Below are positions 6,988-39,396 of a DNA stretch of 64,000 nucleotides, in pieces. Numbering within the stretch: position 1 is the stretch's first letter; every line of letters begins with the position of its first letter. This stretch comes from Candidatus Heimdallarchaeum aukensis (lineage in GTDB: Archaea; Asgardarchaeota; Heimdallarchaeia; Heimdallarchaeales; Heimdallarchaeaceae): assembly GCA_021513695.1 (NCBI GenBank), contig CP084166.1, forward strand, positions 928,001 to 992,000. Direction: 5' to 3'. The position numbers were made by a program, and so were the translations under genes. The notes beneath the pieces are model-generated. The model did not search any database. It was not told where the DNA came from and saw only the letters and a list, made by a program, of their open reading frames with translations.

Positions 6988-6989
6988 GA

Positions 6990-8800: not shown

Positions 8801-8832
8801 AGTAACTCACATGTAAATTTTGGTAACTAACT

Positions 8833-9894: not shown

Positions 9895-9912
9895 ATTGGA
9901 TAAGTTATAAAA

Positions 9913-9939
9913 GTGTTACGATTTTAATATTCGTAACAC
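9913..9939. promoter_or_regulatory. Perfect 9-bp inverted repeat (GTGTTACGA-N9-TCGTAACAC) abutting a TATA-like box upstream of the transporter/cobN operon
   Basis: Read directly. On the minus strand the palindrome is followed immediately by TTTTATAA (9904-9912), about 30 nt before the ATG at 9873. Confidence 0.35.
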
Positions 9940-10057
9940 ATTGTTTGTATCCGAAAAAGATTAGAATAAGAACTTTTTAGGAACAAAGCCCCTGTCTCTC
10001 AAAAATTATTTGCCAATAGATCTATAAATAGAAAAGAAAAAAAGCAAGAAGAAGAAA

Positions 10058-16300: not shown

Positions 16301-16420
16301 TATCTTCTTTTTCCTCATAGACCTTAATTTTCACACTACTTAGTTCAGCTTAAACATTTATTCCTGCTATACGCAATAGACTTGAAAACGTATTTTCACA
16401 CTACTTAGTTCAGCTTAAAC
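10342..16420 (-). CRISPR. CRISPR array 1, about 93 repeats / 92 spacers (hand count), 29-bp repeat, transcribed on the minus strand
   Basis: Plus-strand unit ATTTTCACACTACTTAGTTCAGCTTAAAC is the reverse complement of the array 2 repeat. Spacers are mostly 34-40 bp, with one of 27 bp. The length 6079 bp equals 93 x 29 plus 92 spacers averaging about 36.8 bp. The leader is at the 16421 end. Confidence 0.98.
11738..13063. repeat. Perfect tandem duplication (2 x 663 bp) of a block of 10 spacer-repeat units inside array 1
   Basis: 11738-12400 and 12401-13063 read identically. Both run from spacer CTGACTTTTTTGGAGAATTTGG... to spacer TCACCTATATATATGATGTTCTAACACATAAAAATC. Confidence 0.9.
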
Positions 16421-16520
16421 GAAGTTTATTTTCTTTTCTAGCTATATTTTTCTCTCGTTTTGTCACTCACCTTCCTGGTCGACCTCCAATAAGGTATTAA
16501 CTTTATAAATATTGACCAGA
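16421..16520 (-). promoter_or_regulatory. Leader of CRISPR array 1 (TATA-like ATTTATAAAG, GGTCGACC palindrome)
   Basis: The reverse complement is nearly identical to 28872-28971 upstream of array 2. The core ATTATTGGAGGTCGACCAGGAAGGTGAGTGACAAAA and the junction CTAGAAAAGAAAATAAACTTC are identical. Confidence 0.75.
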
Positions 16521-16569
16521 TACATAAACGTTTACCTTATAAACAATGACTAGTACCATTAAATTTGCT

Positions 16570-18075
16570 TTATTTTTTTGCTATTTTCTCTGCAATTACA
16601 GGATGTTTTTCGTTTACTGCATACCAGAATTTTGCCTTTCCTTTTAAATTTGGTTTTATTATTATCCATCCCTTTTTTTCCATATCTACTAGGATTCTTG
16701 GTTTATTCATTTTGAATTGATTTATGTTTATTTTTTTATGATCATGGTATTTATTTTCTTTTTGCATCCATTCATTTATTTTCCTGAAGCTCCCTGCAGC
16801 TAATCCACCTATCAAGATTGACCCATCCATACAGAGTTTGTATTCTTTTGGTTTTTCCAGTACTGACATGTATTTATCTATCATAAAGTCTAAAATTATT
16901 TCATGTTCTCCCTCTGGCCTTTCGAACATTTTTTCTTTTGTTCCTTCTTTAATTATTTTATTTTTTAGTTTGTCTAGTTGACTATTTTTTTCAAGAAGCA
17001 ACCTATTTTTTTCATGTGGGTCCCATAAATTTATTTTCTCAATTAATATTTGTTCTAAGTTTTGATACTCTCTTTCAATTACTAATTTTGTACTTATTTT
17101 CTTGAATATTTTTCTCTGGTAATTTTGTGGCAGGTAGTATGATCTTCTTCCTATAGAGTGATATAGAATTGGATTTAGGGTATTAACTATATAGTTTACT
17201 AGAGCTATTTTTTCTTCCATGTTTAGCTCCGAAAAGATATTTTCTTCTATTATTGATACTATTCTTTGTATTAGAGTTTTAATCATGAAAGCTGTTAGAA
17301 TAGCTTTTTTTACTCTCTTTTTGAATAATTCATTTTTCTTTTTGTAATGTACTATAGCATAAGTATCAATTCCGAGGGATAAAACGTCTATTTTTTCCTT
17401 TGAGCTATATATCTTTTCTATGTTTTTTTCTTCTAACTTTTGAAAATGAACACTAGGTAATTCAATTATTGAGATGACATTTGAAGATTCTAAATAAATA
17501 TTACTAAATTCTTTAAAGAATGCTCTAAGCAAACAAAATTTTACCTGTTCATTTTTCTTTTTTTTGCCTTTTTCATTTGTAAATATTTTTATTATTTCCC
17601 TTCGTAAATTTTCTAAACTCTCTTCTTCCAGAATTTTTTCACTTAAAATTACTTTCTTTTCTACTTCAGCTATTAATGATGGATAAATGTTTATCTTTTT
17701 TAATCCATTTACGATTTTAACTACTGTTCTTGGTTCATTCCAATAAACAGTTCTTGTTTCAATTGGAATAAGCGGTCTTAAAGGCACTCTTCTAAAAAAT
17801 AAATATTTTTTAGCGTAATAGTACAGATATGAATCATTAGTCAATTTCAGAAAAAGACTTGAGTAGTATGGAATGAAAATGTCGAACTTTTTTCTACCTT
17901 TTCTTATTACCATTTTTATTCTTTTTTTGAACTCTGTTTCTGATTTAAGGAAAGAGAGTTCTTTTCTAATCTTTTTTGAATAAAGGATTTCTGGAATGGC
18001 ATAAAACTGATGGAAAGAGATTTTTATTGTATTCATTTTATTCTCCCTAATACCATTTTTGAAGAGTAGTATCAT
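16570..18075 (-). CDS. Hypothetical ~490-aa protein, no family recognised; second gene of the wHTH operon upstream of the array 1 leader
   Basis: Long uninterrupted ORF. The probable true start is ATG at 18036, preceded by a GGGAG SD that overlaps the TAG stop of the upstream gene. Lys/Glu-rich, with no P-loop and no Cys clusters. Confidence 0.6.
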   Translation of the reverse strand: MILLFKNGIRENKMNTIKISFHQFYAIPEILYSKKIRKELSFLKSETEFKKRIKMVIRKGRKKFDIFIPYYSSLFLKLTNDSYLYYYAKKYLFFRRVPLRPLIPIETRTVYWNEPRTVVKIVNGLKKINIYPSLIAEVEKKVILSEKILEEESLENLRREIIKIFTNEKGKKKKNEQVKFCLLRAFFKEFSNIYLESSNVISIIELPSVHFQKLEEKNIEKIYSSKEKIDVLSLGIDTYAIVHYKKKNELFKKRVKKAILTAFMIKTLIQRIVSIIEENIFSELNMEEKIALVNYIVNTLNPILYHSIGRRSYYLPQNYQRKIFKKISTKLVIEREYQNLEQILIEKINLWDPHEKNRLLLEKNSQLDKLKNKIIKEGTKEKMFERPEGEHEIILDFMIDKYMSVLEKPKEYKLCMDGSILIGGLAAGSFRKINEWMQKENKYHDHKKININQFKMNKPRILVDMEKKGWIIIKPNLKGKAKFWYAVNEKHPVIAEKIAKK

Positions 18076-19525
18076 ATCTTGAAGTTGGCAGATTTACTCT
18101 TTTAGTATACATAAAGCTGGTTATAAAAAAATAAGGTTCTTCTTCTTCAAAAATCGAAGAAAACAAATCTATGAAATTAATTACTAATTCATTGGGTATT
18201 CTTACTGTAACAATTAGTCCCTTTTCATCTGTTATTAAATTAGTAAACGGTTCAGAATAAACTTCTGGAAACAGAGATAATCTATCATGAATCTCTTTTT
18301 GATCCACTTTTTTCTTAAATATAATCATCACATCGTTAGTTCCAAAAATTGGTATTATATTTACTCTTTTTATGTATAGTTGTTCATTTGTGAAGTGTTT
18401 CAAATATTTTCTTATTGTGCTCTGTGAAATATTAGTTTCCTTCTCTATTCTACTTACAGTCAAATCTCTATTCTTAATTATATATTCAAGTATCTTAAGG
18501 CCAGGCTTAGTTAATTTTAATTCACTTTCTTTTGTGTCTTCGAATCTAGGTTTCAATTCATTCTTTGTTTTACTCTTATTATGAAGTGCAATTGCAATTT
18601 CGCTTATCGAATAATTCCAATTTTTGTTTTTATAATCATATTTTGAATAATCAAACGTTGTTATCTGTTCTTCTCTATGCAGAACTAAAATTTCATATTT
18701 TGTTATTTCTTTTTTCTTGATTGACAAGTCAAAAAATTCACTTATTCTCCTACATATCTCCTTCAACAAGGGCACTGGGAATGAGTAGTAGAGTAACAAT
18801 GCCTTGCATGATGTATTCAGTGTCATCGATTTTCTTAAGAACATTTTAGGGAAATTTTCTTTTTTATGTATTGAAGAGAGTTCATCAAATCCATAAACAA
18901 TCACAAGAAGCAAGACAAAGTTTGTCTTTTTCAAATTCAAACTTATTCCTTCATAGATTATTCCTTTATCAAAGAGTAATTTTTTTGTTCTTGTTATATT
19001 TCCTGCATCTTTATTCAAAATTTTACTTAATTCTTTGGTTGAAGTAATTTGATATTTGATCATTGCTTGTAGTAATGAAAACTCTGCTTTTGTTAGACTA
19101 GGCTTGATTCTACTCCTTAATGTAAAAAAGAATCTCAGGAAAAGAGACCAATTTTCTAATAGTATTTTATTTTTTTTATATTCTAAAATAGAAAGTAATT
19201 TATTAGCTGTTTCTTCATCTTGAAGAAACTGTTTATATGACGAGAATATTACATATTTCAAATCATTATATTCTTTCTCTGTACTATATTCAGACCAAAA
19301 ATTCAACCATTTTTCTAATTGTTGTCTAGTTATGCTTTTTTTTCCTTTATTTTTCTGAAAATAAAGTATTCTATATATTTTAAAACATATTAAATCCCAA
19401 GCAGGTGTTTTTGGAACTATATTTAGTTCTTCAACTTTTTTTTTAAAAAATTTAAAATGTGATCCTAAGATTTCTCTCCCTTTCTCTAAAATTACTTCTC
19501 TTTCTTTTATTTGAGAATATTTCAT
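18047..19525 (-). CDS. 492-aa protein with two Lrp/AsnC- or MarR-like winged-helix segments; paralog of 34762..36246
   Basis: wHTH-like segments LTKAEFSLLQAMIKYQITSTKELSKILNKDAGNITRTKKLLFDKGIIYEG and LTKPGLKILEYIIKNRDLTVSRIEKETNISQSTIRKYLKHFTNEQLYIKRVNIIPIFG. Colinear similarity to the 494-aa ORF along the full length, for example LSLFPEVYSEP vs LSFFPEVYSEP and W.NFW..YS. Confidence 0.65.
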   Translation of the reverse strand: MKYSQIKEREVILEKGREILGSHFKFFKKKVEELNIVPKTPAWDLICFKIYRILYFQKNKGKKSITRQQLEKWLNFWSEYSTEKEYNDLKYVIFSSYKQFLQDEETANKLLSILEYKKNKILLENWSLFLRFFFTLRSRIKPSLTKAEFSLLQAMIKYQITSTKELSKILNKDAGNITRTKKLLFDKGIIYEGISLNLKKTNFVLLLVIVYGFDELSSIHKKENFPKMFLRKSMTLNTSCKALLLYYSFPVPLLKEICRRISEFFDLSIKKKEITKYEILVLHREEQITTFDYSKYDYKNKNWNYSISEIAIALHNKSKTKNELKPRFEDTKESELKLTKPGLKILEYIIKNRDLTVSRIEKETNISQSTIRKYLKHFTNEQLYIKRVNIIPIFGTNDVMIIFKKKVDQKEIHDRLSLFPEVYSEPFTNLITDEKGLIVTVRIPNELVINFIDLFSSIFEEEEPYFFITSFMYTKRVNLPTSRYDTTLQKWY

Positions 19526-19990: not shown

Positions 19991-20010
19991 ATTAAAAGTT
20001 TTTATAGTTT
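19991..20010 (+). promoter_or_regulatory. Putative BRE/TATA of the cas operon (AAAAGTTTTTATAG), predicting a leaderless cas6 mRNA
   Basis: The TATA-like element is centred near 20003, about 26 nt before the first ATG of cas6 (20029). There is no SD in between. Confidence 0.4.
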
Positions 20011-20022
20011 GTTGAGATAAAA

Positions 20023-20745
20023 TTGTTGATGAGGATTCTTATTTCTTTTAAGCCTAAATTTGATGTTTCAGAGGATGCCATAGTAAAACATGATATTCAA
20101 GGATTTATTTATAATCTAATCAAGTACAAAGATACTAAAGTTCTTTTAGATCATGATAAACATCATTTCAAATTTTTTTGTTTTAGCGATATTTTTCCTC
20201 AAGGTGATTTTAAAAAAGGAGAGACAAAAAATCTGTTAATTAGTTCTCCTACAAAAGAGCTAATAAATTTAATTGATGATAATCTTCCTCTTGAGAAATC
20301 CTATAGATTAGCTGGATTAACCATCGAAGTTATATCCAAAAAAACTTTTAACTTTCCCACAAAAAACAACTTTATTTCTGGAAGTCCTATAGTTTTATAC
20401 AAAGATAATACAAAGAATGAATATTTTAGCTTTAAGAAACACAAAAGTCTTAATTTCTTTCTCAATAGATTACAAGAAAATGCTGTGAAAAAGTATCAAA
20501 TTTACTATAACGATCCTGAATTTCAATTGTCTGGAAAGATTTTTGATACAATTGAATTTAGAAAGGAGGTTGCAGTTCACAACAGGAAACAAGGAAATGA
20601 ATTTATTCACATTGGCACTCTTTGGAAAAAATTAGAAAAAGAATACATAAAGAAAGAAGAAAGAAGGTTTTATCATTTTATCATGGAAAGTGGTCTTGGC
20701 GAAAAAAATAGTATGGGTTTTGGTTTTTTAAATCCTATTCAATAA
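20023..20745 (+). CDS. cas6: Cas6 crRNA endoribonuclease
   Basis: 240 aa. C-terminal glycine-rich loop GLGEKNSMGFGFLN typical of Cas6. First gene of a canonical I-B order. Probable start ATG at 20029. Confidence 0.85.
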   Translation: MLMRILISFKPKFDVSEDAIVKHDIQGFIYNLIKYKDTKVLLDHDKHHFKFFCFSDIFPQGDFKKGETKNLLISSPTKELINLIDDNLPLEKSYRLAGLTIEVISKKTFNFPTKNNFISGSPIVLYKDNTKNEYFSFKKHKSLNFFLNRLQENAVKKYQIYYNDPEFQLSGKIFDTIEFRKEVAVHNRKQGNEFIHIGTLWKKLEKEYIKKEERRFYHFIMESGLGEKNSMGFGFLNPIQ

Positions 20746-20850
20746 ATTGTATTTTTTTGTTTAAATTTTACAATTAATTTTTGAAAAAACAACCTTTAAA
20801 ATATTTTTTTCTTTCTGTTTTACCAATAAAACTTAATTATTGGTGTTCCA

Positions 20851-22863
20851 TTGATACAAGCAGTTAAACAATTAGGAAAAAAAATACGAGAGATTTATCC
20901 TGAAAAATATGCAGATTTTGTCGATGTCTTTATTGCAGATGTAAAAACAGATTTATTTTTGATAGAATTAGAGAAAAAAGAAAACGATTTTCAATATAAT
21001 AAAATTGTTTGGATGGAACCAAAACCTGAGATAATTCCTAAATTACTTTATAAAGACTTTGGGAGAAATATCAAAATTAGACCTGCGCCTGTAGCTAAAG
21101 TAGGTTATTTCCAGACCAAATCAAAAGATGGTAAAATTTCAGAAAAAGAGCTCGAGAATCACAAGAAGAAAATAAAAAGCGAACTAGACGCTTCCATAAT
21201 TAAATGGTTTTCTCAAGAAATTGATAGAAGAAAAGAAGGTAGTGAAAAAAGAATTTTCTTGGAAAATATAAAAAAAGGAATACTCAATTCATTAGATAAT
21301 ATAATTACAGATATTAAAGAACAGATGGATTTTTCAGGTCAAAATAAGAAAAAAAATGAAAAGTGTATAATAACACTACAATTTTTGGAAGGTGGTAAAG
21401 AATATTACCTTCGTGACTTTGATATTTTTTCTAAAGCTTTTTTAGATAAAAACTTGGAACGTTACGCAAATAAATGGGGAATAACTTCTAAAGGAGAAGA
21501 TGCTGTTTGTTCATTATGTCATGAGAAAAAAGAAGAAGTCTTTGGTTGTGCCTCAGACATTTTTAGCTGGTACACTCTTGATAAAAGAGGATTTGCACCA
21601 TTCTTTGATCAGACTTTAGGATGGAAACTATTTCCTGTCTGTAAAGAATGTATTATTGATCTAGAGATAGGCAAAAAATTTGTTTTAAACAATCTACGTC
21701 TTAAGTTTAATGATTTTACTAACTTTTTCTTAATTCCAAAGCTTCTAAATCCTAAAATTATCGATAAGGGTATTTTGAGAAGATTTGAGCTTTTCAAGAG
21801 TATTTCAGTTGAAAATAATGAACTATTGGAAAAATATAGGAAAAAAGAAGAGATACTTAAGAGAGCTACAAAAAGCACAATTGAAATGATCGGAGAACAA
21901 GAAAAAGATAACAATTTTACGCAGAATATGATTTTCCTGAATTTAATTTTCTTTGATGATGATGGAAAATCTATAAAGATTCTACGTAGTATTGAAGATG
22001 TTCTTCCTTCCAGGTTTGTTCAGATAACTGATGAGCTATATAAAATAAATAAGGATGAAACTTTGGACAGCTATAAAATTTATTTGCAATTAGTTTTAAA
22101 CATCTTATATCTGGAAAAAGAAAGTAAACGCGGTTCTACAATTGATAAAAAGTATTTATCTACAATCGATTCTCTTCTTAAAGATGTACCTTTAGATTAT
22201 GATGTTCTTATAAAGGATATCGCTTCAAGTTGTCAAGAGATAGTAAAGGAAAGTTATCTTTCTGATAACAATCTAAAAAAAATAGCTAAAAAAATTACAA
22301 ATATTGACAAAGGTAATAATGACGTAGAATTTGGCAACTCTTATGAGTTAATAATTAATGCTTATTTAAAATATTTAGTTTTATTAAAAAGATTAAATCT
22401 AATCCAAAAATGGAGGGTATCAAAAATGATTGATAAAACAGGACTTGAAGAAGAAATATCAGATAATAAGAGTCGACTAAGCATCTTAAATTCAATATTT
22501 AATGCTTATTCTGACTTTTTTGATCAACCCATTATTCGTGCTGTCTTTGTATTAGGCATTTTGACTAAGCTATTGATGAATATTCAGTATCGCAATCTCA
22601 ATGCTACGCCTTTTTTCAACAGGTTAAATGGGTTAAAATTGAATAAAAGAATAATAATCAAACTTGTTTCCGAAGTAAAAGGAAAACTAAGTGAATACTC
22701 TATAGCTTATGTTGATTTAGAAGAAGAGATGGCTAAATACTTCTTAGAAGCTGGTCACAATTGGCTGGTTTCTGATGACGAACTTAGTTTCTTCTTCGCT
22801 TTGGGAATGAATAACGCGAGTAAATTTAAATCAGAAACAAAAGAAGGTGAAGAAAATGAGTGA
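20851..22863 (+). CDS. cas8b: Cas8b-type large subunit of type I-B Cascade
   Basis: 670 aa, located between cas6 and cas7. Cys pairs CSLCHEKK...CKEC. The call rests mostly on size and synteny. Confidence 0.75.
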   Translation: MIQAVKQLGKKIREIYPEKYADFVDVFIADVKTDLFLIELEKKENDFQYNKIVWMEPKPEIIPKLLYKDFGRNIKIRPAPVAKVGYFQTKSKDGKISEKELENHKKKIKSELDASIIKWFSQEIDRRKEGSEKRIFLENIKKGILNSLDNIITDIKEQMDFSGQNKKKNEKCIITLQFLEGGKEYYLRDFDIFSKAFLDKNLERYANKWGITSKGEDAVCSLCHEKKEEVFGCASDIFSWYTLDKRGFAPFFDQTLGWKLFPVCKECIIDLEIGKKFVLNNLRLKFNDFTNFFLIPKLLNPKIIDKGILRRFELFKSISVENNELLEKYRKKEEILKRATKSTIEMIGEQEKDNNFTQNMIFLNLIFFDDDGKSIKILRSIEDVLPSRFVQITDELYKINKDETLDSYKIYLQLVLNILYLEKESKRGSTIDKKYLSTIDSLLKDVPLDYDVLIKDIASSCQEIVKESYLSDNNLKKIAKKITNIDKGNNDVEFGNSYELIINAYLKYLVLLKRLNLIQKWRVSKMIDKTGLEEEISDNKSRLSILNSIFNAYSDFFDQPIIRAVFVLGILTKLLMNIQYRNLNATPFFNRLNGLKLNKRIIIKLVSEVKGKLSEYSIAYVDLEEEMAKYFLEAGHNWLVSDDELSFFFALGMNNASKFKSETKEGEENE

Positions 22864-23785
22864 AATAATAAAAAATAGGTCTGAAATAGTTTTTTTGTAT
22901 GATGTTAGAGACGGTAATCCAAATGGTGACCCTGCTGATGGGAACAAGCCTAGGATTGATGAAACCAGTGGTATCAACATAGTAACTGATGTTCGACTAA
23001 AGAGAACAATAAGAGACTATATAAACAAGGTTAAAGGCCATGAAATTTTTGTTAAAAAGATAGAAGACTTAGAAGGGATAATCCAAACTTCTAAACAACG
23101 AGCACAAGATTTTCAGAATGATCCAGATAAGATTCTTTCTGAATGCGTGGATGTCAGGATGTTTGGGGGAACTATACCAATAAAAATTTCTGATAAGAAA
23201 GATGGTAGCATTACTTTTACTGGTCCCGTTCAATTCTCTATGGGGAGATCTCTTCACAGAGTCGAGTTAAAACATGTTAAAGGAACAGGAGCTTTTGCTT
23301 CTTCAGAAGGAAAGAAACAACAGACTTTTCGAGAAGAGTGGATACTACCTTATTCACTAATAAGCTTTTATGGTGTAATAAATGAGAATGGTGCAGAAGA
23401 TACACAGTTAACCGAAGAGGATGTTAAGCTTCTTGTAGAAAGTATCTGGAATGGGACTAATGATTTGTTAACAAGAAGTAAGATGGTTCATAGATCTAGA
23501 GTTCTTTTACAAATTATTTACCAAGAGAAAAACTTCCATGTCGGAGAGCTTGACAAAAAGATTAAGATGAAGGCTAAAGTTGAAGATGAAAAAATTAGAG
23601 GTACGGATGACTACACTCTTGAATTTGATAATTTTGTAGAAGCGATCAAAAATAACAAAGAAAAAGTAAAAATTATTCGTTACAAAGTAGATGACAGTAT
23701 TAATCTTGAATTTAATGGTGACAAAAAGACTATAGAAGAGATTCTAAAACTTACAGAATGTGAATTGGAAGAGCTGAAATTTTAA
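22847..23785 (+). CDS. cas7: Cas7 (Csh2/Csd2-family backbone subunit)
   Basis: N-terminal signature IVFLYDVRDGNPNGDPADGNKPRID. The track start GTG lies inside the SD GGTGA; the probable start is ATG at 22856. Confidence 0.9.
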   Translation: MKKMSEIIKNRSEIVFLYDVRDGNPNGDPADGNKPRIDETSGINIVTDVRLKRTIRDYINKVKGHEIFVKKIEDLEGIIQTSKQRAQDFQNDPDKILSECVDVRMFGGTIPIKISDKKDGSITFTGPVQFSMGRSLHRVELKHVKGTGAFASSEGKKQQTFREEWILPYSLISFYGVINENGAEDTQLTEEDVKLLVESIWNGTNDLLTRSKMVHRSRVLLQIIYQEKNFHVGELDKKIKMKAKVEDEKIRGTDDYTLEFDNFVEAIKNNKEKVKIIRYKVDDSINLEFNGDKKTIEEILKLTECELEELKF

Positions 23786-23791
23786 TAATAG

Positions 23792-24553
23792 GTGAGACTA
23801 ATGCTAAAACAGGAAGCTGAAGTAAGAGAAGTTTTAGTTTTCGATATTTGGGGTGATTTTGCTCATTTTAAGAAAAACTATGCTACAACTTCAGCTCTTA
23901 CATACAATTTTCCTCCTCGAAATACTATTGCAGGAATAATTGGAGCAATTTTAGGTTTAAAGAGGGCAGATTTTCCTGAAAAATTGTCTCCTGAAAAGAG
24001 TTACATTGGTGTTTCAATACTCTCTCCAATAATGAAAAAAACTATTACAATGAATCTTATTCACACTAAACCTTCTGAATCACTTATATTCAAAAATAAT
24101 TTTGGTTATTTCAAAAAGCACACACAGATTCCTTTTCAATTTTTATCTAATATCTCATTTAGGGTGTATTTTTCAACTGACGATGAGGAAATGTTTTCAC
24201 AACTATATACATATCTTAAAAACCATAAGTCTCATTATACAGTTTCGTTAGGTTTGAGCAATCTACTTTGTAACTTTAAGTTAATAGGAAAAAAAACAAT
24301 AAGAAAAAAAGAAGTAGCTAACAAAGAAGTAGAGGTTTTAACAGTAATTCCGATGAACAAAGTCAAAGAAGTAAATGTGTTTAAAAATCCTAAAATGAAT
24401 ATCGAGAATTTACCCAGATTTATCGATAGTTCAAGAACAGTTCATGAATACCAGGAAGTTCTATCAAGCATGGATCCAGAAAAACCTCTTTTTGTAGTCC
24501 CTAGAGATACCTTATGGGAGATTGAAAATGACAAATTCATCAGTTTCCTCTGA
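23792..24553 (+). CDS. cas5: Cas5 (type I-B)
   Basis: N-terminal Cas5 signature VFDIWGDFAHFKKNYATTSALTYNFPPRNTIAGIIGAILG. Confidence 0.85.
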   Translation: MRLMLKQEAEVREVLVFDIWGDFAHFKKNYATTSALTYNFPPRNTIAGIIGAILGLKRADFPEKLSPEKSYIGVSILSPIMKKTITMNLIHTKPSESLIFKNNFGYFKKHTQIPFQFLSNISFRVYFSTDDEEMFSQLYTYLKNHKSHYTVSLGLSNLLCNFKLIGKKTIRKKEVANKEVEVLTVIPMNKVKEVNVFKNPKMNIENLPRFIDSSRTVHEYQEVLSSMDPEKPLFVVPRDTLWEIENDKFISFL

Positions 24554-26990
24554 AAATCAGATAAACATTTTTTCTCACCCTAATAAAAATATTTTAGAAC
24601 ATTTAAGTGAGACAGAAAGAGAAATTCTAAATATCCTTGAAAAACTACAGCCCAATTTTTCAATCAAAAAAAACATTATTATCGAAATCGCTAGAATTTT
24701 AGCTTTAACACATGATATTGGAAAATGCACAATCTTTTTTCAAGAATATCTTCATTCAAACGAAGAAAATAACTTCAAAAAATTGGGAGAATATCAAAGT
24801 TCAAAACTTCACCACCATGGACTAATCTCTGCAGTTTTTACCTATTATACACTAAAGAAACTTTTAAATTCAAATAATGAGCAGTTCTATGACCTGAATA
24901 GTGGATATAAAGACCTATTACCTCATATAGGCTTTTTAACAACAAAAAAACATCATGGTAATTTAGGAAATTTTTATGATGAGATTATTATAAACAGAAC
25001 AAGTGAAGAAAAGATTAGACAGCAACTAGAAAATTTCCATCCCCAATTCGAAAATGTTGTCGAATTCATAAGAAATAAAATTAATATAACAATTTCATTT
25101 AATGAATTTTCAGAATCCTTTGGAGATTTAATTGATGAATTAGCTTTCAGTGATGAACTATTATTGAACTATTATGAAAATAGTAGAGATTGTGAACTTT
25201 ATCTATTTACTTTATTTTTACATTCAATCTTAACAGATGCAGATAAAACTTCTGCTATTGGTGTCTCTAAGCCTATTCTTCCATTTATTTCTTCTAACAA
25301 AATTATCAAAAACAGGAAAAAAATAATCCAGAAAAAAGGAAAAAAGACATATTTAGATAACTTAAGAGAGAATATTTACAAAGAAGTAATTGCAAAGATA
25401 GAAAAAACACCTTTAGATAACAAAATATTTACATTAACAGCTCCTACAGGTTCAGGAAAAACTCTCACAGTTTTTGAAGCAGCATTTAGATTGAAAGATA
25501 AAATTTTAAGGAGAACTAATATAGAAATGAAAATTATTTATTGCCTTCCATTTCTCAGCATCATTGATCAAAATGCTCACATTATTAACCAACTGCTAGA
25601 TCCTGACTCAGTTAAGTTTCTTCCTTCAACTCAACTACTAATTCATCATTACTTGGCAGAAGTTCAATACAGCTCTTATGAAGAAGATTATACCTTTGAT
25701 GAAAGTAGATTCCTAATTGAGGATTGGCATTCTTCAGTTATTATTACAACCTTTATTCAGCTTTTTCATAGTATTTTTACCAATAGAAATAGCAAGATAA
25801 GGAAACATCACAATATACAAAATTCTATCATAATACTTGATGAAGTTCAAAACATTCCTCATAAGTATTGGTTATTGATCAGGGAAGTTTTTCAAAGATT
25901 ATCAGAGATCGAGAATGTTTATATCATTTTTACAACAGCCACACAGCCTAAAATTTTTAGTTCAGAAGAGAAAGTTGTTGAATTACTTGAAAATAAGGAA
26001 AAATACTTTGAACAGTTAAGTAGAATTACTTTAGAACCAAAAATTGATAACAATATCACACTCAACGAGTTTATTTTAGAAATTAATGAGAAACTGCAAA
26101 AGAACAGTGACAAGGATATTCTAATTGTTGCGAATACAATCCGAGAAGCTCAAGAGATTTTTGACAGTATTAATTTTAAAAAAGATCATGATAAGTTATT
26201 TTTCCTTTCAAGTCAAATAATCCCTAGAAAGAGGAAAGAAAGAATTGAAGAAATAAAGAGAAAATTAGAAAAAGAAAAAGATAAAAGAGAGAGTAATGAA
26301 AAACGAATTATTTTAGTAACTACCCAATTAATTGAAGCAGGAGTAGATATCGATTTTGATATTGTAATAAGAGATTTAGGACCAATAGATTCTATAAATC
26401 AAGTAGCAGGAAGATGTAACAGAAACGGAGAAGAAGAAAAGGGAAAAACAATTGTTTATTCAGTCATTGACCAAAAAACAAAAAGATTATTTGCTTCATA
26501 CATTTATGACGGATTTATTTTAAGTAAAACGAAGGATGTTCTAAAAAACAAAAGAGTGATAGAAGAACAAGAATTCCTCAAAATCATTGACGATTATTAT
26601 TTAAGCATCGAAAAGACAGGGGACACAATAACCTCCACTAATATACTAGACTCTATCTTTAATTTAGAGTTTGATGAAATAGGTAAATTTAGCCTGATAG
26701 AAGAAAGAGCTGATCAAGTTCCTGTTTTTATTGAGATAGATAAAAAGGCAAAGGAAATTTGGGCAGAATATTTGGAAATATGGAATATTAAAGATTGGAA
26801 GAAAAGAAATGAGAAATTTATAAAAATCAAAAATGATCTCTATAGTAACTTAATTAACGTAGACAAGAAAAAAATCAAAACAATTGAGCAAATAAAGGGT
26901 TATTATTATATCGATTTTCAAAATGCTAGGAACTACTACGACAATGAAAAAGGTTTCATTGGGAAAGAAAAAGATGTTATTTTATTATAA
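24522..26990 (+). CDS. cas3: Cas3 HD nuclease / DExH helicase fusion
   Basis: HD region LALTHDIGK...HHHG. Helicase Walker A APTGSGKT, Walker B IILDEVQ, and motifs TATQP and QVAGRCNR. Confidence 0.95.
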   Translation: MKMTNSSVSSENQINIFSHPNKNILEHLSETEREILNILEKLQPNFSIKKNIIIEIARILALTHDIGKCTIFFQEYLHSNEENNFKKLGEYQSSKLHHHGLISAVFTYYTLKKLLNSNNEQFYDLNSGYKDLLPHIGFLTTKKHHGNLGNFYDEIIINRTSEEKIRQQLENFHPQFENVVEFIRNKINITISFNEFSESFGDLIDELAFSDELLLNYYENSRDCELYLFTLFLHSILTDADKTSAIGVSKPILPFISSNKIIKNRKKIIQKKGKKTYLDNLRENIYKEVIAKIEKTPLDNKIFTLTAPTGSGKTLTVFEAAFRLKDKILRRTNIEMKIIYCLPFLSIIDQNAHIINQLLDPDSVKFLPSTQLLIHHYLAEVQYSSYEEDYTFDESRFLIEDWHSSVIITTFIQLFHSIFTNRNSKIRKHHNIQNSIIILDEVQNIPHKYWLLIREVFQRLSEIENVYIIFTTATQPKIFSSEEKVVELLENKEKYFEQLSRITLEPKIDNNITLNEFILEINEKLQKNSDKDILIVANTIREAQEIFDSINFKKDHDKLFFLSSQIIPRKRKERIEEIKRKLEKEKDKRESNEKRIILVTTQLIEAGVDIDFDIVIRDLGPIDSINQVAGRCNRNGEEEKGKTIVYSVIDQKTKRLFASYIYDGFILSKTKDVLKNKRVIEEQEFLKIIDDYYLSIEKTGDTITSTNILDSIFNLEFDEIGKFSLIEERADQVPVFIEIDKKAKEIWAEYLEIWNIKDWKKRNEKFIKIKNDLYSNLINVDKKKIKTIEQIKGYYYIDFQNARNYYDNEKGFIGKEKDVILL

Positions 26991-27002
26991 CGAAATGATG
27001 GA

Positions 27003-27031
27003 GTTCAAGCTAAACTAAGTAGTATGAAAAT
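27003..27031 (+). repeat. Solitary degenerate CRISPR repeat (26/29 identical to the array repeat) between cas3 and cas4
   Basis: GTTCAAGCTAAACTAAGTAGTATGAAAAT vs GTTTAAGCTGAACTAAGTAGTGTGAAAAT, in the same orientation as the cas genes. No second repeat follows. Confidence 0.8.
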
Positions 27032-27073
27032 TAGAGGTAGAAGTAATGGTATTAAATTCTTGGTGAAATTGTA

Positions 27074-27604
27074 ATGGTGGAGTTAAATCATATTAGCATT
27101 AAGAATACTGATTTTGCAGTAACTGGAGTAATGGTTCAATATTTATTTTCATGTAAAAGAGAATTGTGGTTTTTTACCAAAAAAATTGATTTCAACAAAG
27201 AGGATCAGAACATTCAAATTGGCAAAATAATACATGAAACAAGCTATAAACGAAATAAAAAAGAGTTTGACTTAGGTTTTGTAAAATTTGACTTAATTGA
27301 AACAAAAAACAGGATAATAATTTCTGAAATAAAAAAATCTTCAAAACTTTTGGAACCTGCAAAAATGCAACTTTTGTATTATGTTTACATTTTAAGTAAA
27401 ATAACTGAAAAAGAAGTAGAAGGAGAAATTAGAATTCCAAAAGAGAGAAAAAAAGTAAAGATTCAATTGCAAAACGAAGAAGAAAAATTAATTCAAAAAG
27501 CTTTGAGAGAGATTAAAGAAATTTCCTTACTGGAAAGACCTCCCAAAGCAGAAAAAAAATTTTATTGTAAGAATTGCGCTTATTACATTTTTTGCTGGGT
27601 TTGA
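27074..27604 (+). CDS. cas4: Cas4 (RecB-like nuclease with Fe-S Cys cluster)
   Basis: 176 aa. One N-terminal Cys (FSCKRELWF) plus a C-terminal CKNCAYYIFC. Sits before cas1. SD GGTGA at 27062-27066. Confidence 0.85.
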   Translation: MVELNHISIKNTDFAVTGVMVQYLFSCKRELWFFTKKIDFNKEDQNIQIGKIIHETSYKRNKKEFDLGFVKFDLIETKNRIIISEIKKSSKLLEPAKMQLLYYVYILSKITEKEVEGEIRIPKERKKVKIQLQNEEEKLIQKALREIKEISLLERPPKAEKKFYCKNCAYYIFCWV

Positions 27605-28591
27605 GTGAAAAAAATGAAAGATTCTATTTACATTACAAAGGAAGGAGTAATTTACAGAAAAGATAATACTATTGTTTTTCAAAATCAAGAACAAAAGCAT
27701 ACTTTACCTATCGAAGCAGTGAAAGATATATATTGTATTGGCAAAGTAACTATAAGATCTGGAGCAGCTTATCAACTAATGGAAAAAAGGATTCCTGTAC
27801 ATTTTTTCGGAAAATATGGACACTATAGAGGAACATTACAACCAAAACAAGATCTAATCTCTGGAGAAGTAATAGTAAAACAAGTTCAACATTATACTGA
27901 TTACATAAAAAGAATAAAAATTGCAAAAGAGATGTTTAAAGGAATAAAACACAACATTCTCTGGGTTCTAAAATATTACAAATCAAAAAGAGATATAGAA
28001 GATGTAGTTGAAAAAATTGAACATGTTAATATTCAAGAAGAAATATTAAAAATAAATACATTAAGAAGTTTAGAAGGTCAAATATGGGAACTTTTCTATC
28101 AAGCTGCTGATACAATTTGTCCTTCATGGGGTTTTAGAAAAAGGACTAGAAGGCCTCCTTTAGATGAAGGAAATGCACTAATATCTTATGGAAACTCAGT
28201 TCTATATGGAAAAACAATTTCTGAAATATTCAAAACTTATCTTCATCCTGCAATTTCGTTTATACACGAACCAAGTGAAAGAAGGTACTCTTTAGCCTTA
28301 GATCTAGCTGATATTTTCAAACCAGTAATAGTTTTTAGAACAGTCTTCAGGCTTATAAATCAGAAAATAATTTCAAAGAAAGATTTTGAAAAAGAAGTAG
28401 GAGTCCAAATTTCAGAAAAAGGAAAAAAAGTATTTATCACAGAATTAGAAAAAACATTCACAACTACAGTAAGACATCCAAATCTGAAAAGAAATACCTC
28501 ATACCAGTTTTTGATAAGACTTGAAGGACTAAAAATAATGAAACATGTTCTAGGAGATAAAAAATATGAAAGCTTTAAAGCATGGTGGTAG
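27605..28591 (+). CDS. cas1: Cas1 integrase
   Basis: 328 aa in the canonical position, with the conserved C-terminal acidic block SLALDLADIFKP. Probable start ATG at 27614. Confidence 0.9.
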   Translation: MKKMKDSIYITKEGVIYRKDNTIVFQNQEQKHTLPIEAVKDIYCIGKVTIRSGAAYQLMEKRIPVHFFGKYGHYRGTLQPKQDLISGEVIVKQVQHYTDYIKRIKIAKEMFKGIKHNILWVLKYYKSKRDIEDVVEKIEHVNIQEEILKINTLRSLEGQIWELFYQAADTICPSWGFRKRTRRPPLDEGNALISYGNSVLYGKTISEIFKTYLHPAISFIHEPSERRYSLALDLADIFKPVIVFRTVFRLINQKIISKKDFEKEVGVQISEKGKKVFITELEKTFTTTVRHPNLKRNTSYQFLIRLEGLKIMKHVLGDKKYESFKAWW

Positions 28592-28857
28592 AGATATACG
28601 TGATAATCGTTTATGACGTGGGAGAAGAAAGAGTAAATAGAATACATAAATTCTTGAAAGCATATTTAACATGGACACAAAATTCAGTATTTGAAGGAAA
28701 AATAACAAAAGCAACATTAGCTCAAATAAAAACAGGAATAAAAAGCATAATAAAAAAAGAAGTCGATTCAATAAAAATATTCAAAATAAAAGGAGAACAA
28801 TGGATGAATATTGAAATAATGGGAGTAGAAAAAAATAAGTTTCAGAATATAATTTAG
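28582..28857 (+). CDS. cas2: Cas2
   Basis: 91 aa. N-terminal beta-strand YVIIVYDV typical of Cas2. Overlaps the cas1 end and is followed directly by the leader. Confidence 0.85.
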   Translation: MVVEIYVIIVYDVGEERVNRIHKFLKAYLTWTQNSVFEGKITKATLAQIKTGIKSIIKKEVDSIKIFKIKGEQWMNIEIMGVEKNKFQNII

Positions 28858-28971
28858 GTAAATCGTAAGAATCAGGTCGACATTTATAAAGATGATACAT
28901 TATTGGAGGTCGACCAGGAAGGTGAGTGACAAAAGGAAAGAAAAATATAACTAGAAAAGAAAATAAACTTC
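28858..28971 (+). promoter_or_regulatory. Leader of CRISPR array 2 (TATA-like ATTTATAAAG at 28882-28891; GGTCGAC at 28875 and GGTCGACC at 28908)
   Basis: Homologous to the reverse complement of 16421-16520. Ends ...AAAATAAACTTC directly before the first repeat. Confidence 0.75.
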
Positions 28972-31900
28972 GTTTAAGCTGAACTAAGTAGTGTGAAAAT
29001 TTCTTTTGTTCTTTGGAGGAGGACAACCTTCAACGAGTTTAAGCTGAACTAAGTAGTGTGAAAATCAGTCTGGGTATATTTTATGCCCCTCAATATTTTG
29101 AGTTTAAGCTGAACTAAGTAGTGTGAAAATTGCTGGCTGGACTGGGCATAATTTCCAGAAATCTCTGTTTAAGCTGAACTAAGTAGTGTGAAAATAGTAA
29201 AATAGCTTTTATTTATTCCGTAGTAATATATGGTTTAAGCTGAACTAAGTAGTGTGAAAATCGCTATTGTAGTCGAGTTAGAAGATGGAGAGATTGAGTT
29301 TAAGCTGAACTAAGTAGTGTGAAAATAAATATATTGTGATGAATTGGATAAAAGAACTAAAAGTTTAAGCTGAACTAAGTAGTGTGAAAATAAACCAGAA
29401 GGAATGACTTTCATTCCTGCTACAGGTTTAAGCTGAACTAAGTAGTGTGAAAATTAATCAGAATAAAATGCTCATAATCATTGGTATAATAGTTTAAGCT
29501 GAACTAAGTAGTGTGAAAATGCAAAGCAATGAAAGGAGTGTTTTGTCTGGTGAGGTCGTTTAAGCTGAACTAAGTAGTGTGAAAATCAATCAGATTTGAG
29601 GGACAAAATAGTCCCGTTGGGACGTTTAAGCTGAACTAAGTAGTGTGAAAATACTGAAGAACAAGAAAAGAATATAAAAAGAACCAAGGTTTAAGCTGAA
29701 CTAAGTAGTGTGAAAATTAATATATCTATCGACTTGAACAAATTAGTTGAAGAGGGTTTAAGCTGAACTAAGTAGTGTGAAAATGGTAAATCCCCCAACA
29801 ATCCTGAAAGTGTTAAATTTGTTTAAGCTGAACTAAGTAGTGTGAAAATATTGTTCTTTTTTCAAATCATCTATTTTTTTTGCTCGTTTAAGCTGAACTA
29901 AGTAGTGTGAAAATTACAATTGACAGTAGTCACACACAAACCATTTAGGTGTTTAAGCTGAACTAAGTAGTGTGAAAATAAAATTCTTCGTGTGTCATAT
30001 AAAAGGCATCATCAGTTTAAGCTGAACTAAGTAGTGTGAAAATAGATCAGAGAGACTTGGGTAGAGTTAGTGAGATCTATGTTTAAGCTGAACTAAGTAG
30101 TGTGAAAATTACATATTTTTGAATAATTGAGACATGCATATGACGTTTAAGCTGAACTAAGTAGTGTGAAAATACAGCTCTCAACTGATAAGAGCGTTCT
30201 TTTTCATTGTTTAAGCTGAACTAAGTAGTGTGAAAATTTGTCAAAGTGTTTGTATAAGTGTCAATATAATCTGTTTAAGCTGAACTAAGTAGTGTGAAAA
30301 TATGTCTTTAGAGACTTGTTGAAGAGCAGGATTGTCAGGTTTAAGCTGAACTAAGTAGTGTGAAAATCAAGCATTTCTGCGATAACGACACCAGAACCAT
30401 TAAGTTTAAGCTGAACTAAGTAGTGTGAAAATTAAATGTGGTCGTGTATCGTTATATGGTGCTCTGAAATGTTTAAGCTGAACTAAGTAGTGTGAAAATA
30501 TATCTCCAGAGTGCCAAATTTCAACATTTGACACGTTTAAGCTGAACTAAGTAGTGTGAAAATCCAATTAATTAAGCCGCTGTTTCAAAAGGTGGTTCAG
30601 TTTAAGCTGAACTAAGTAGTGTGAAAATTTCGATGGATCCATAAAGGTAAATTAGGATCCCAAAAGTTTAAGCTGAACTAAGTAGTGTGAAAATAAAAAG
30701 CCAAGAGATGGATTGATGAACAAAAAAACCGTTTAAGCTGAACTAAGTAGTGTGAAAATCAGTCTGGATAGAGTTTGTGCCCATTAATATTCTGAATTGT
30801 TTAAGCTGAACTAAGTAGTGTGAAAATAGAGTAGGATTGTCAGATTGATCCATAAGGTATAGAAGTTTAAGCTGAACTAAGTAGTGTGAAAATGGTGACG
30901 CCACAAGCGAGGCATTCCCAAGCTCAATAGTTTAAGCTGAACTAAGTAGTGTGAAAATGGATTAAAAAATATGTCTCCTCTCGCTCGTTACGGGTTTAAG
31001 CTGAACTAAGTAGTGTGAAAATAATATCTTTAGATACCTGTTGAAGAGCGGAGTTGGTTTAAGCTGAACTAAGTAGTGTGAAAATCCAAAATTCTCGACT
31101 GCCTCTAAAGCAAATGAGAAAGTTTAAGCTGAACTAAGTAGTGTGAAAATTTTTTTTTCTGTCTGTTATTTCTTCTACTTCTTCTGTTTAAGCTGAACTA
31201 AGTAGTGTGAAAATTTATGATATGCGAACGTTTGCATGTTTGCGAATACAAGTTTAAGCTGAACTAAGTAGTGTGAAAATAGAAAACGTTTGGCTCGAAT
31301 GGATTGGTTTCTATGTCGTTTAAGCTGAACTAAGTAGTGTGAAAATTTGCTAAACCCGCCGCATAATCTTTTTTCTTTTATTTTGTTTAAGCTGAACTAA
31401 GTAGTGTGAAAATTAACCTGCAGAAATATCTTGTAAAATCTTGAATTCAACCTTGTTTAAGCTGAACTAAGTAGTGTGAAAATTAGTTTTGATTTGTAAA
31501 AGACGGATATCCACTTGTTGTGCTGTTTAAGCTGAACTAAGTAGTGTGAAAATATCAACACGTGGGTTTCTATCCAAATCTAATCCTCTGTTGTTTAAGC
31601 TGAACTAAGTAGTGTGAAAATAGCGATATAAAGAAGTTATCCTTTTCAGTATAATAAGGTTTAAGCTGAACTAAGTAGTGTGAAAATAAATTTCTAAAAA
31701 TATTGAAAGGTCAAAATCAAGATTGTTTAAGCTGAACTAAGTAGTGTGAAAATCTAACATGTGTAAGATTCATTGGGCCAATCCAAATTGTTTAAGCTGA
31801 ACTAAGTAGTGTGAAAATCTAAACACAATTTGCATGATGCCATGCTTGTTTTTTGTTTAAGCTGAACTAAGTAGTGTGAAAATGTTGGTTGTGTATAGTG

Positions 31901-33583
31901 TAAATAGATTTTTCTGATTGGGTTTAAGCTGAACTAAGTAGTGTGAAAATTTCTACTTCAAAGAATGAGCACCAATAGTTAAACCAGTTTAAGCTGAACT
32001 AAGTAGTGTGAAAATGCTTCATCTGCTAAAAGTTGTAGTTGTTCATAAAGGTTTAAGCTGAACTAAGTAGTGTGAAAATTGTGCTACATATATACACACC
32101 TATATCCTGTTTATCGTTTAAGCTGAACTAAGTAGTGTGAAAATATCCTGATAGGTGAGTCCTACAGGAGAAAGAAAAAGTTTAAGCTGAACTAAGTAGT
32201 GTGAAAATATCCTGATAGGTGAGTCCTACAGGAGAAAGAAAAAGTTTAAGCTGAACTAAGTAGTGTGAAAATCCCAATAGCATCCTCTTTTATCTGGGGC
32301 TTGGTTTATGTTTAAGCTGAACTAAGTAGTGTGAAAATCTGTGATTTCTGCGGAAATAAACATGTGACGGAAAGTTTAAGCTGAACTAAGTAGTGTGAAA
32401 ATGCAACTCTTTCCGTCCAGCGCACTAAAGCTGCTTTTGGGTTTAAGCTGAACTAAGTAGTGTGAAAATGTTTTTCATGGTAGCTTGCTACCAAAAATTT
32501 ACTTAAAAGTTTAAGCTGAACTAAGTAGTGTGAAAATGAGACTGTTAATAGCGAAGTCAGATTCCTCAAAAGGTGTTTAAGCTGAACTAAGTAGTGTGAA
32601 AATTTGTCTTTACACAGGGCATTCTCAGTTCTGGAGGAAGTTTAAGCTGAACTAAGTAGTGTGAAAATCACATAAACAAATTAGAAAGCGAAATAACCAC
32701 AGTTGTTTAAGCTGAACTAAGTAGTGTGAAAATCAATATTCTTCATCTTCTTCTAAATCATACAATAGCGTTTAAGCTGAACTAAGTAGTGTGAAAATAG
32801 AAAAGAGGAACCGTTGTTCTTAAAGGTAAAAATCGTTTAAGCTGAACTAAGTAGTGTGAAAATAAAGAGTATTGAACTCCTGGTTCAAAACTGATTTTGC
32901 AGTGTTTAAGCTGAACTAAGTAGTGTGAAAATTAATTGCTTTTTTGTCTGCATGACTTGGTAATTCAAAGTTTAAGCTGAACTAAGTAGTGTGAAAATTT
33001 CAAGGTGAGACCAACGATCCTGGTTACTTCGGTTGTTTAAGCTGAACTAAGTAGTGTGAAAATAATATGTAATTAAATAAGTTTTTATTGTGGTAAAATG
33101 TTTAAGCTGAACTAAGTAGTGTGAAAATACATTAAGAAAACGCTTACCATCTAAAGAAACAATCGTTTAAGCTGAACTAAGTAGTGTGAAAATTCATAAG
33201 TTGACCAATATTCAGAAATTACATAACGTTTAAGCTGAACTAAGTAGTGTGAAAATGAAAGCGTTTAGAATTGGTGGCGGTTCTGGTTGCAGGTTTAAGC
33301 TGAACTAAGTAGTGTGAAAATTACTGGGCAATGGAAAAAAGCTGTTGCCGCATTCAAGTTTAAGCTGAACTAAGTAGTGTGAAAATTAACTCACTCGCTC
33401 ACCCTCAGAGAGAGCCACAAACGTTTAAGCTGAACTAAGTAGTGTGAAAATTAATTTACGTCATGACTATGATGCGACCCCCAACGAGGTTTAAGCTGAA
33501 CTAAGTAGTGTGAAAATATTTGACTACTAGGTTTAGGTTTGAATATGAACCAGAGTTTAAGCTGAACTAAGTAGTGTGAAAAA
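28972..33583 (+). CRISPR. CRISPR array 2, about 71 repeats / 70 spacers (hand count), 29-bp repeat GTTTAAGCTGAACTAAGTAGTGTGAAAAT
   Basis: Regular units of about 65 bp. The last repeat ends ...GAAAAA, a single change at its final base. The length 4612 bp equals 71 x 29 plus 70 spacers averaging about 36.5 bp. Confidence 0.98.
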
Positions 33584-38053: not shown

Positions 38054-38198
38054 TCTTGGTTCTTGTGTTGACAAGTAAAATATTCATAATTGTGCTTTCT
38101 ATGATGACTGAATAAAGTCCGATTGATTGAATTCTTCGTTGCTATTAAAGTTCTTTGATTTTGTTTAATTTTCTTTTCTTTCTTTTTTCTTTTATTCT

Positions 38199-39230: not shown

Positions 39231-39346
39231 TCTGGTTCGGGGTGTTTTTCTTTTTCACATTTATCAATCTTTACTCTTTCTCCATTCAATTTTCTATTAT
39301 TTATTCTTTCTTTTTTTCTCATTCTTTTCTGATTTTTACTATTTTT

Positions 39347-39396
39347 TCTATCAAACTTATCTATCAAACTTTTCTATCAAACTTTTCTATCATTTC
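39347..39396. repeat. 13-bp tandem repeat TCTATCAAACTT(A/T), about 3.8 copies, in the divergent EamA/HIT intergenic region
   Basis: Read directly: TCTATCAAACTTA TCTATCAAACTTT TCTATCAAACTTT TCTATCATTTC. Confidence 0.8.

Follow-up and report, generated by a model that had tools for sequence, protein, structure and literature searches.

The 64-kb window analysed here, 64,000 nucleotides of contig CP084166.1 of Candidatus Heimdallarchaeum aukensis, contains a complete type I-B CRISPR-Cas locus, whose genes match NCBIfam models above the curated cut-offs, and a lone, degenerate copy of the array repeat lies between cas3 and cas4 of this locus. This lone repeat is a genuine single repeat unit (SRU), a kind of element already catalogued in CRISPR-cas loci but not at this type I-B position. 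With somewhat more belief than doubt, we regard it as the result of an illegitimate recombination that joined array DNA to the 5′ end of cas4, possibly still cut by Cas6, and not as a guide-RNA gene. We favour a recombination scar because the repeat is restricted to one lineage, is fused to a relic of a cas4 start, has no leader, partner repeat or target, and lies close to a putative recombination breakpoint.

The array repeat, common to the two arrays that flank the cas genes, is the 29-nt sequence GTTTAAGCTGAACTAAGTAGTGTGAAAAT, and all 164 repeats of arrays 1 and 2 are identical except for one mismatch in the terminal repeat of array 2. The lone repeat, GTTCAAGCTAAACTAAGTAGTATGAAAAT, differs from it by T4C, G10A and G22A. 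Dinucleotide shuffles gave 0 matches to the array repeat at three or fewer mismatches, and the best other non-array match in 64 kb is 19/29; with 26/29 identical positions, the lone repeat thus derives from the repeat of its own locus. It lies on the + strand, in the same sense as cas6-cas8b-cas7-cas5-cas3-cas4-cas1-cas2 and array 2, within the 83 nt that separate the cas3 stop from the cas4 ATG. It begins 12 nt past the cas3 stop (26990), and 42 nt lie between its end and the cas4 ATG (27074). A second repeat was not found nearby: the best matches between 26900 and 27300 are 15/29 (+) and 17/29 (−), and the cas4 start, which lies at spacer distance from the lone repeat, matches the array repeat at no more than 15/29. 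The element is thus intergenic within the cas locus, outside the arrays and without a partner repeat at spacer distance, as expected of an SRU. A preliminary description of this DNA had placed a sense-oriented 26/29 match at 27003–27031, 12 nt after the cas3 stop and with no second repeat following it, and all of these points are borne out. The GAGGT, the 6-codon mini open reading frame (mini-ORF) and the GGTGA that it reported in the 42 nt before the cas4 ATG are also present where it had located them (Table 1).

The sequence directly upstream of the lone repeat resembles the beginning of cas4. The 12 nt past the cas3 stop and the first repeat bases together read cgaaATGATGGAGTTcaa, within which ATGATGGAGTT (26995) is similar to today's cas4 start, ATGGTGGAGTT (27074). 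As a longer direct repeat (D2), AATGATGGAGTTCAA and AATGGTGGAGTTAAA (27073–27087) are identical at 13/15 positions and lie 79 nt apart. The last bases of the upstream copy, GTT, are at the same time the first bases of the lone repeat, and its reading frame (ATG ATG GAG TT...) continues into the repeat and stops at the TAA at 27016–27018. The upstream copy begins with ATGATGGA (ATG ATG GA), as does the cas4 start of the related locus L003 (ATGATGGAACTT), and it is found 4 nt past the cas3 stop versus 8 nt for the cas4 start in L003. In a simulation with 200,000 random sequences of 79 nt and the base composition of the window, a fraction of 1.8e-4 contained a copy that matched at 13/15 positions or more, and a fraction of 2.2e-4 had the octamer ATGATGGA within the first 20 nt. 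The simplest reading of both tests together is a putative relic of an ancestral, tightly coupled cas4 start. Since this relic start is fused to the repeat, the lone repeat would sit in an insertion or duplication of ~79 bp. The preliminary description does not mention this relic.

We therefore propose that illegitimate recombination of the microhomology type may have linked a piece of array DNA to the cas4 5′ end. The junction would lie at the GTT microhomology, at which the old cas4 start ATGATGGAGTT would have been fused to the repeat, and an insertion or duplication of ~79 bp would have been left behind. The 42 nt past the repeat would then supply both the Shine–Dalgarno (SD) sequence and the regenerated cas4 start. 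The pseudo-spacer formed by these 42 nt has no match among the 162 spacers of the window, the leaders, the trailers or viral contigs, and viral scans for the repeat (with the three variant positions allowed) and for the pseudo-spacer gave 0 matches, and hence neither a sign of a viral origin of the 42 nt nor a protospacer adjacent motif. Comparison of the flanks of the lone repeat with leaders, trailers and spacers gave nothing significant. A 10-nt identity, AATTAGAGGT, to the leader of the related locus L004 was seen by eye; its chance is ~0.04, and it is not relied on.

Two other origins of the insert were considered and rejected. A tandem duplication of 79 nt was suggested by a second direct repeat, TTATTATAnCGA (26903 and 26982), which shares the spacing; apart from this, the two units are unrelated, and chance alone would give one 11/12 pair of this kind in 300 nt. 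Off-target integration by Cas1-Cas2 in its ordinary form does not fit, because the insert of 64 nt does not have the length of a spacer, nor the duplicated segment of ~15 nt that of a repeat.

Type I-B Cas6 cuts 8 nt from the 3′ end of the repeat, which leaves an 8-nt 5′ handle. We aligned 24 distinct repeats of the same family from related loci, in which positions 2–4, 6, 12, 13, 19–21, 23 and 26–28 show no variation and 23/24 agree at position 14. A12-C13-U14 pairs with A19-G20-U21 in a 3-bp mini-stem, which ends at the cut predicted by the 8-nt handle rule, between 27023 and 27024. The lone repeat keeps every family-invariant position except T4, at the far 5′ end, which is changed to C; the mini-stem (12–21) and handle positions 23–29 are unchanged. 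G10A and G22A fall at freely variable positions, with A being the commonest base at position 22 (16/24). The array repeat of L004 also has A at position 10, so the lone repeat may descend from an older or related variant and not from heavy decay. The substitution patterns are not statistically compelling: by our own calculation from the table of 24 repeats, at least two of three changes fall at variable sites with p~0.37, and the change from wobble to Watson–Crick pairs among transitions has p~0.11. With its intact mini-stem and 5′ handle, the lone repeat could plausibly be cleaved by Cas6 in a transcript that reads through from cas3 into cas4. Provided that the two genes are co-transcribed, Cas6 would probably cut the mRNA at this point; the upstream product would be an interference-module mRNA with a repeat 3′ tag, and the downstream product would be a cas4-cas1-cas2 mRNA beginning 5′-AUGAAAAU. 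Such cleavage is more likely that of a tolerated scar than a selected feature. The repeat identity, the relic start and the lack of the element in relatives and of a target in the window are observed directly, whereas we infer that the element arose by recombination, that cas3 and cas4 are co-transcribed and that Cas6 cleaves here.

The distribution of the element was examined in 133 related I-B loci, grouped into 105 lineages by a cut-off of 90% nucleotide identity. A cas3→cas4 junction is found in 62 of these lineages, 41 of which also have an array on the contig and hence a known repeat. Most of the surveyed junctions overlap or are shorter than 30 nt, and among the 41 testable lineages a repeat-like sequence at the junction occurs only in the window's own, represented by the metagenome contigs L001 and L002 (98% Cas4 identity), in which an identical lone repeat is present. 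In L003 (Cas4 61%), the array repeat is exactly identical over 29 nt, yet the cas3-cas4 gap is 8 nt and there is no lone repeat. In L004 and L005 (Cas4 58%), the cas3 stop overlaps the cas4 start. Thus, the conservation in related I-B loci that the preliminary description had proposed to look for is absent from the testable lineages other than the window's own. In a genome scan for Cas4 relatives, seeded by an alignment of nine Cas4 sequences, the nearest homologues belong to metagenome-assembled genomes (MAGs) of Heimdallarchaeota, other Asgard or uncultured archaea, at 48–58% identity. An exact look-up of the window's Cas4 in the assembly collection gave no record. A metagenome scan with a single Cas4 protein returned nothing and a second metagenome scan only relatives of ≤50% identity; relatives of intermediate distance to the element-bearing lineage were not found in the collections searched.

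L003 comes from the same metagenome sample as L002 and is a clearly different I-B system, with identities to the window of 44% for Cas3, 61% for Cas4, 65% for Cas1 and 45% for Cas2 (L003 4842–8585). The window, L001, L002 and L003 have no spacers in common. A module swap relative to L003–L005 was also considered and rejected, as the per-gene identities are uniform for each gene class and give no sign of a swap.

Conservation in closely related loci is a criterion of the pipeline by which SRUs were catalogued (Shmakov et al. 2023, PMC10120712). The lone repeat is identical in L001 and L002, where it lies in a block with zero differences from both contigs, and it is absent from L003–L005, at 58–61% Cas4 identity. 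The block begins at a sharp step in divergence inside the 3′ end of cas3: upstream of 26861 there are 3–13 differences per 100 nt (4–13 for L002), and in the rest of cas4-cas1-cas2 there is ~1 per 100 nt. The step at ~26861 marks a putative recombination breakpoint ~130 nt before the cas3 stop and indicates that the adaptation block, from this step onward, would have recombined recently among strains. Since the block has no differences, L001 and L002 are uninformative on selection for the lone repeat. L001 also has a deletion of ~40 nt near the divergence step (window 26800–26870; L001 1100–1145), which truncates its cas3. Together with the 11 duplicated spacers of the arrays, we count the divergence step among the local signs of recombination that fit a scar. 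According to the preliminary description, the sequence would be a decayed repeat fossil if no processed RNA originated here, if it were not conserved in related loci and if no seed-matching target existed; within the limits of the data, the latter two hold (it is not conserved, and no seed target lies in the 64 kb), which points to a probable repeat fossil.

A scan of all loci for lone repeats found one other lineage, the near-identical contigs L119, L120, L122 and L124 (Cas4 44%). In L124, the lone repeat GTTTAAATCGCACGATATAGTATGGAAAT (1905–1933, 25/29) lies in sense between cas4 and cas1, and the other three contigs have the same lone repeat at 899–927. The handle ATG in L124 (1926) is in frame with cas1, and the next cas1 ATG is 4 nt past the repeat. 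Leader similarity was not found upstream of the L124 lone repeat. A lone sense repeat directly upstream of an adaptation gene is therefore found in 2/62 array-bearing lineages, which could reflect either the proximity of arrays to adaptation genes, biasing recombination, or a recurrent function.

Several observations weigh against the explanation as a recombination scar. T4C and G10A turn two G·U pairs of the only predicted hairpin into Watson–Crick pairs, which changes its predicted energy from −1.5 to −4.0 kcal/mol, and G22A introduces the family-typical handle base; this pattern of changes could also reflect selection for a cleavable site. The arrangement of the SD-like sequence and mini-ORF downstream of the repeat has a chance of ~0.7% under a simple null model, although this was calculated post hoc and has no comparative support. 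The evidence that relatives lack the element comes from loci of ≤61% Cas4 identity and is thus compatible with recent selection, and the second lone repeat in L119–L124 hints at recurrence. The similarity of the relic start to the cas4 start was noticed post hoc, and the tests on it are post hoc and not mutually independent. Finally, the insert of 64–79 bp corresponds to no clean repeat-spacer unit and to no target duplication of 29 bp, so the exact mechanism cannot be read from it.

One alternative builds on the Cas6-site reading of the preliminary description: the lone repeat would be a selected Cas6 site, which would split the polycistron into cas6-cas3 and cas4-cas1-cas2 halves with separate stability and translation, the upstream half ending in a Cas6-bound repeat tag and the downstream half beginning with the 5′ handle of a CRISPR RNA (crRNA). 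The repeat does lie in sense exactly at the module boundary, it has kept the invariant mini-stem and handle with two of its three changes at freely variable positions, two changes strengthen the predicted hairpin, and it is present with two cas3 alleles that are ~8% apart. In addition, in a second I-B lineage, unrelated to this one, a lone sense repeat ends 4 nt before a cas1 ATG, with the handle ATG in frame. However, the element is absent from all other lineages examined at this junction, including L003 with its identical repeat, the substitution pattern is not significantly non-random (~0.37 and ~0.11), and both occurrences are confined to near-identical strains, so purifying selection cannot be shown. 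We consider a selected site rather unlikely on this balance. A more elaborate form, which we rate as very improbable, places the crRNA 5′ handle in cis on the adaptation mRNA. There, G22A would make the AUG of AUGAAAAU and hence a leaderless upstream open reading frame of 16 codons, whose stop would overlap the cas4 AUG; free Cas5 and Cas7 would assemble on the handle and cover the next ~36 nt, including the cas4 SD (+31 to +35). The expression of the acquisition genes would thereby be tied to the activity of Cas6 and to Cascade unoccupied by crRNA, and the lone repeat of L119–L124, 4 nt before cas1 and with its handle AUG in frame, would be a convergent case. The chance that the stop of a 16-codon ORF overlaps the cas4 ATG is ~5%, so this overlap is not significant alone. 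The lone repeat might also be what is left of an array that collapsed in situ between cas3 and cas4 by repeat–repeat recombination, like a solo long terminal repeat. Related loci with an array directly before cas4 exist, e.g. L027 (Deferribacter thermophilus), in which a full sense array (6244–10010) ends 131 nt upstream of cas4; the duplicated spacers show that repeat-mediated rearrangements occur in the genome, and degenerate repeats are typical of array ends, as in the terminal repeat at 33555. Against this, the repeat begins just 12 nt past the cas3 stop, and the absence of leader homology upstream makes an in-situ array seem unlikely; moreover, a simple collapse does not predict direct fusion to a relic cas4 start. 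Such a collapse is improbable in our view.

The preliminary description had also offered a guide RNA of the CreA/CreR type as a reading. After Cas6 cleavage, the RNA of AUGAAAAU and the next ~36–42 nt would then be loaded in Cascade and repress a partly complementary promoter. Type I cas loci can contain degenerate repeats that encode RNAs of this kind. In CreA/CreR elements of types I-B, I-E and V-A, two degenerate repeats flank a pseudo-spacer under its own promoter (Li et al. 2021; bioRxiv 10.1101/2023.03.10.532045), and the seed of the pseudo-spacer matches a PAM-flanked site (PAM, protospacer adjacent motif) at a cas or toxin promoter (bioRxiv 10.1101/2023.03.10.532045). Only one repeat is found here, which is not decisive alone, since the second repeat can be very degenerate, even beyond recognition (bioRxiv 10.1101/2023.03.10.532045, Figure S8 legend). 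A promoter of its own or a leader is not evident: compared with the conserved array leaders and their TTTATAAAG box, the sequence upstream of the lone repeat showed neither leader nor promoter similarity. There is an A/T-rich TTTTATTATAA across the cas3 stop, a type of string that occurs often at the 32% GC of the window, and the promoter scanner excludes archaeal promoters. With the pseudo-spacer seed as the query (TAGAGGTAGAAG...), the window has 17 matches of at least 10/12, which is the chance level; the best is 10/12, and most lie in coding regions or array spacers, while the promoter regions of cas6 and cas8 and the leaders of the arrays contain none. In the region upstream of cas6, the cas6-cas8 spacer and both leaders, the best seed match is 9/12, with only five contiguous positions from spacer position 1. 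Thus, the search for seed matches proposed in that description gave none beyond chance in the 64-kb window, and no match of ~10 nt or more that is PAM-flanked and at a cas or toxin promoter was found there. The ‘spacer’ is moreover the 5′ untranslated region (UTR) of cas4, whose SD and start signals account for its sequence. Nor does the mini-ORF resemble the toxin partner CreT, as it has no rare codons: GTA, TTA, AAT, TCT and TGG are all common in the genes of the window. Given that no leader, partner repeat or recognisable target is found, the lone repeat is not a guide-RNA gene in our reading, and a CreA/CreR-like function appears extremely improbable.

Compared with known systems, the lone repeat is most similar to the SRUs, which are isolated single repeat units in CRISPR-cas loci (Shmakov et al. 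2023, PMC10120712). Like them, it is a lone near-copy of the repeat of its own array, intergenic in the cas locus and without a downstream repeat. Type I-B repeat-like sequences are enriched around cas6, in long intergenic regions (PMC10120712), whereas this one occupies a short cas3-cas4 gap of 83 nt, is joined to a relic start and is found only in near-identical strains. With CreA/CreR it shares the degenerate repeat derived from the cognate array among the cas genes of an archaeal type I-B locus; it differs in that a second repeat, an own promoter and a promoter seed match were not found for it in the 64-kb window. In work by Li et al. in J Bacteriol from 2013, Cas6 reportedly cleaved a repeat-like sequence in a Haloferax mediterranei provirus transcript, and Qi et al. 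are said to have put synthetic Csy4 sites between cistrons in 2012. These cases have in common with the lone repeat that a cognate Cas6 can cut a single repeat embedded in an mRNA and so separate RNA segments; however, the cleavage is experimental there, and we infer it here. Lastly, the lone repeat resembles the degenerate terminal repeat of an array in having few substitutions against otherwise homogeneous repeats, but it is unattached and lies 1.9 kb before array 2, across cas4-cas1-cas2.

Table 1. Features of the type I-B locus and of the cas3-cas4 junction in the window.
Feature	Position	Strand	Remarks
Array 1	10342–16420	− (inverted)	93 identical repeats
Array 1 leader	16421–16569	− (inverted)	
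Interference module cas6-cas8b-cas7-cas5-cas3	20023–26990	+	NCBIfam matches
cas6	20023–20745	+	ORF; NCBIfam Cas6
cas8b	20851–22863	+	ORF; NCBIfam Cas8b/Csh1
cas7	22847–23785	+	ORF; NCBIfam Cas7/Csh2
cas5	23792–24553	+	ORF; NCBIfam Cas5b
cas3	24522–26990	+	ORF; NCBIfam Cas3 HD and helicase domains
Block with zero differences from L001 and L002	26862–27454	+	Begins at sharp divergence step inside cas3 3′ end
Putative relic cas4 start copy AATGATGGAGTTCAA	26994–27008	+	13/15 versus 27073–27087; spacing 79 nt
Standalone degenerate CRISPR repeat (SRU)	27003–27031	+	26/29 versus array repeat
Mini stem-loop ACU-AAGU-AGU, repeat positions 12–21	27014–27023	+	Conserved in related repeats
5′-handle-like octamer ATGAAAAT	27024–27031	+	GTGAAAAT in arrays; G22A creates ATG
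16-codon ORF MKIRGRSNGIKFLVKL	27024–27074	+	Starts at handle ATG; TAA stop overlaps cas4 ATG (TAATG)
Pseudo-spacer	27032–27073	+	42 nt; present cas4 5′ UTR; contains SD-like GAGGT, mini-ORF and cas4 SD
SD-like GAGGT	27034–27038	+	
6-codon mini-ORF ATG GTA TTA AAT TCT TGG TGA	27046–27066	+	
cas4 SD GGTGA	27062–27066	+	
Adaptation module cas4-cas1-cas2	27074–28857	+	NCBIfam matches
cas4	27074–27604	+	NCBIfam Cas4
cas1	27605–28591	+	NCBIfam Cas1b
cas2	28582–28857	+	NCBIfam Cas2
Array 2 leader	28858–28971	+	
Array 2	28972–33583	+	71 repeats; terminal repeat (33555) with one mismatch

The features of the locus are listed in Table 1. The array spacers (n = 162) are 34–42 nt long, with a mode of 36 nt and one outlier of 27 nt; the 42 nt of the pseudo-spacer compares with this mode of 36 nt and is the length of 1/162 spacers. 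Eleven spacers are present twice in the arrays, which indicates segmental duplications inside the arrays; Tandem Repeats Finder (TRF) also gives periods of 130–330 nt. The leaders of array 1 and array 2 are ~95% identical over ~115 nt; both have the TTTATAAAG box followed by ATTGGAGGTCGACC, and the leader motif in L004 is similar (TTTATAAAG...ATTAGAGGTTGACC). Within the pseudo-spacer and the cas4 start, the exact 8-mer GTAATGGT occurs twice (27043–27050 and 27071–27078). The start of the mini-ORF, ATGGTATTAAAT, resembles the cas4 start, ATGGTGGAGTTAAAT, save for a 3-nt gap, and may represent a third such start in decayed form; by our own estimate, this similarity is at the chance level.

Regarding the surroundings of the cas genes, a TATA-like TTTTTATAG was noted by eye within 19999–20031, ~25–30 nt 5′ of the likely cas6 ATG (20029), which suggests an archaeal-type promoter and a putative leaderless cas6 mRNA. 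Between the array 1 leader and cas6, the minus strand (16570–19525) contains two large ORFs of 501 and 492 amino acids, which have weak family matches only (a WxPxxD membrane-protein model, and a Sta1-like helix–turn–helix at residues 144–191); they are candidate regulators or accessory genes associated with the locus. Short T-rich tandem repeats (periods of 8, 13, 29 and 30 nt) cluster at 38151–39392 and overlap in part a minus-strand ORF at 38199–39230. An Rfam scan of 16400–64000 at the gathering threshold gave 0 matches, and tRNAs were also not found. Elsewhere in the window, the best named relatives of CobN are in Methanococcus and Thermococcus, at ~52% identity.

The Cas proteins of the window are closest to those of Asgard MAGs, the archaeal host seems to be poorly sampled, and to our knowledge little is known of CRISPR regulation in Asgard archaea. 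If the lone repeat is a scar only, it is a small, clean record of array DNA recombining into cas operons, and it cautions against taking every lone repeat for a regulatory RNA. If Cas6 or Cascade does act on it, the lone repeat would be a natural in-cis CRISPR repeat that splits or controls a cas polycistron. The expression of the acquisition genes would then be linked to the state of the interference machinery, in a manner distinct from the trans-acting CreR and tracr-L circuits.

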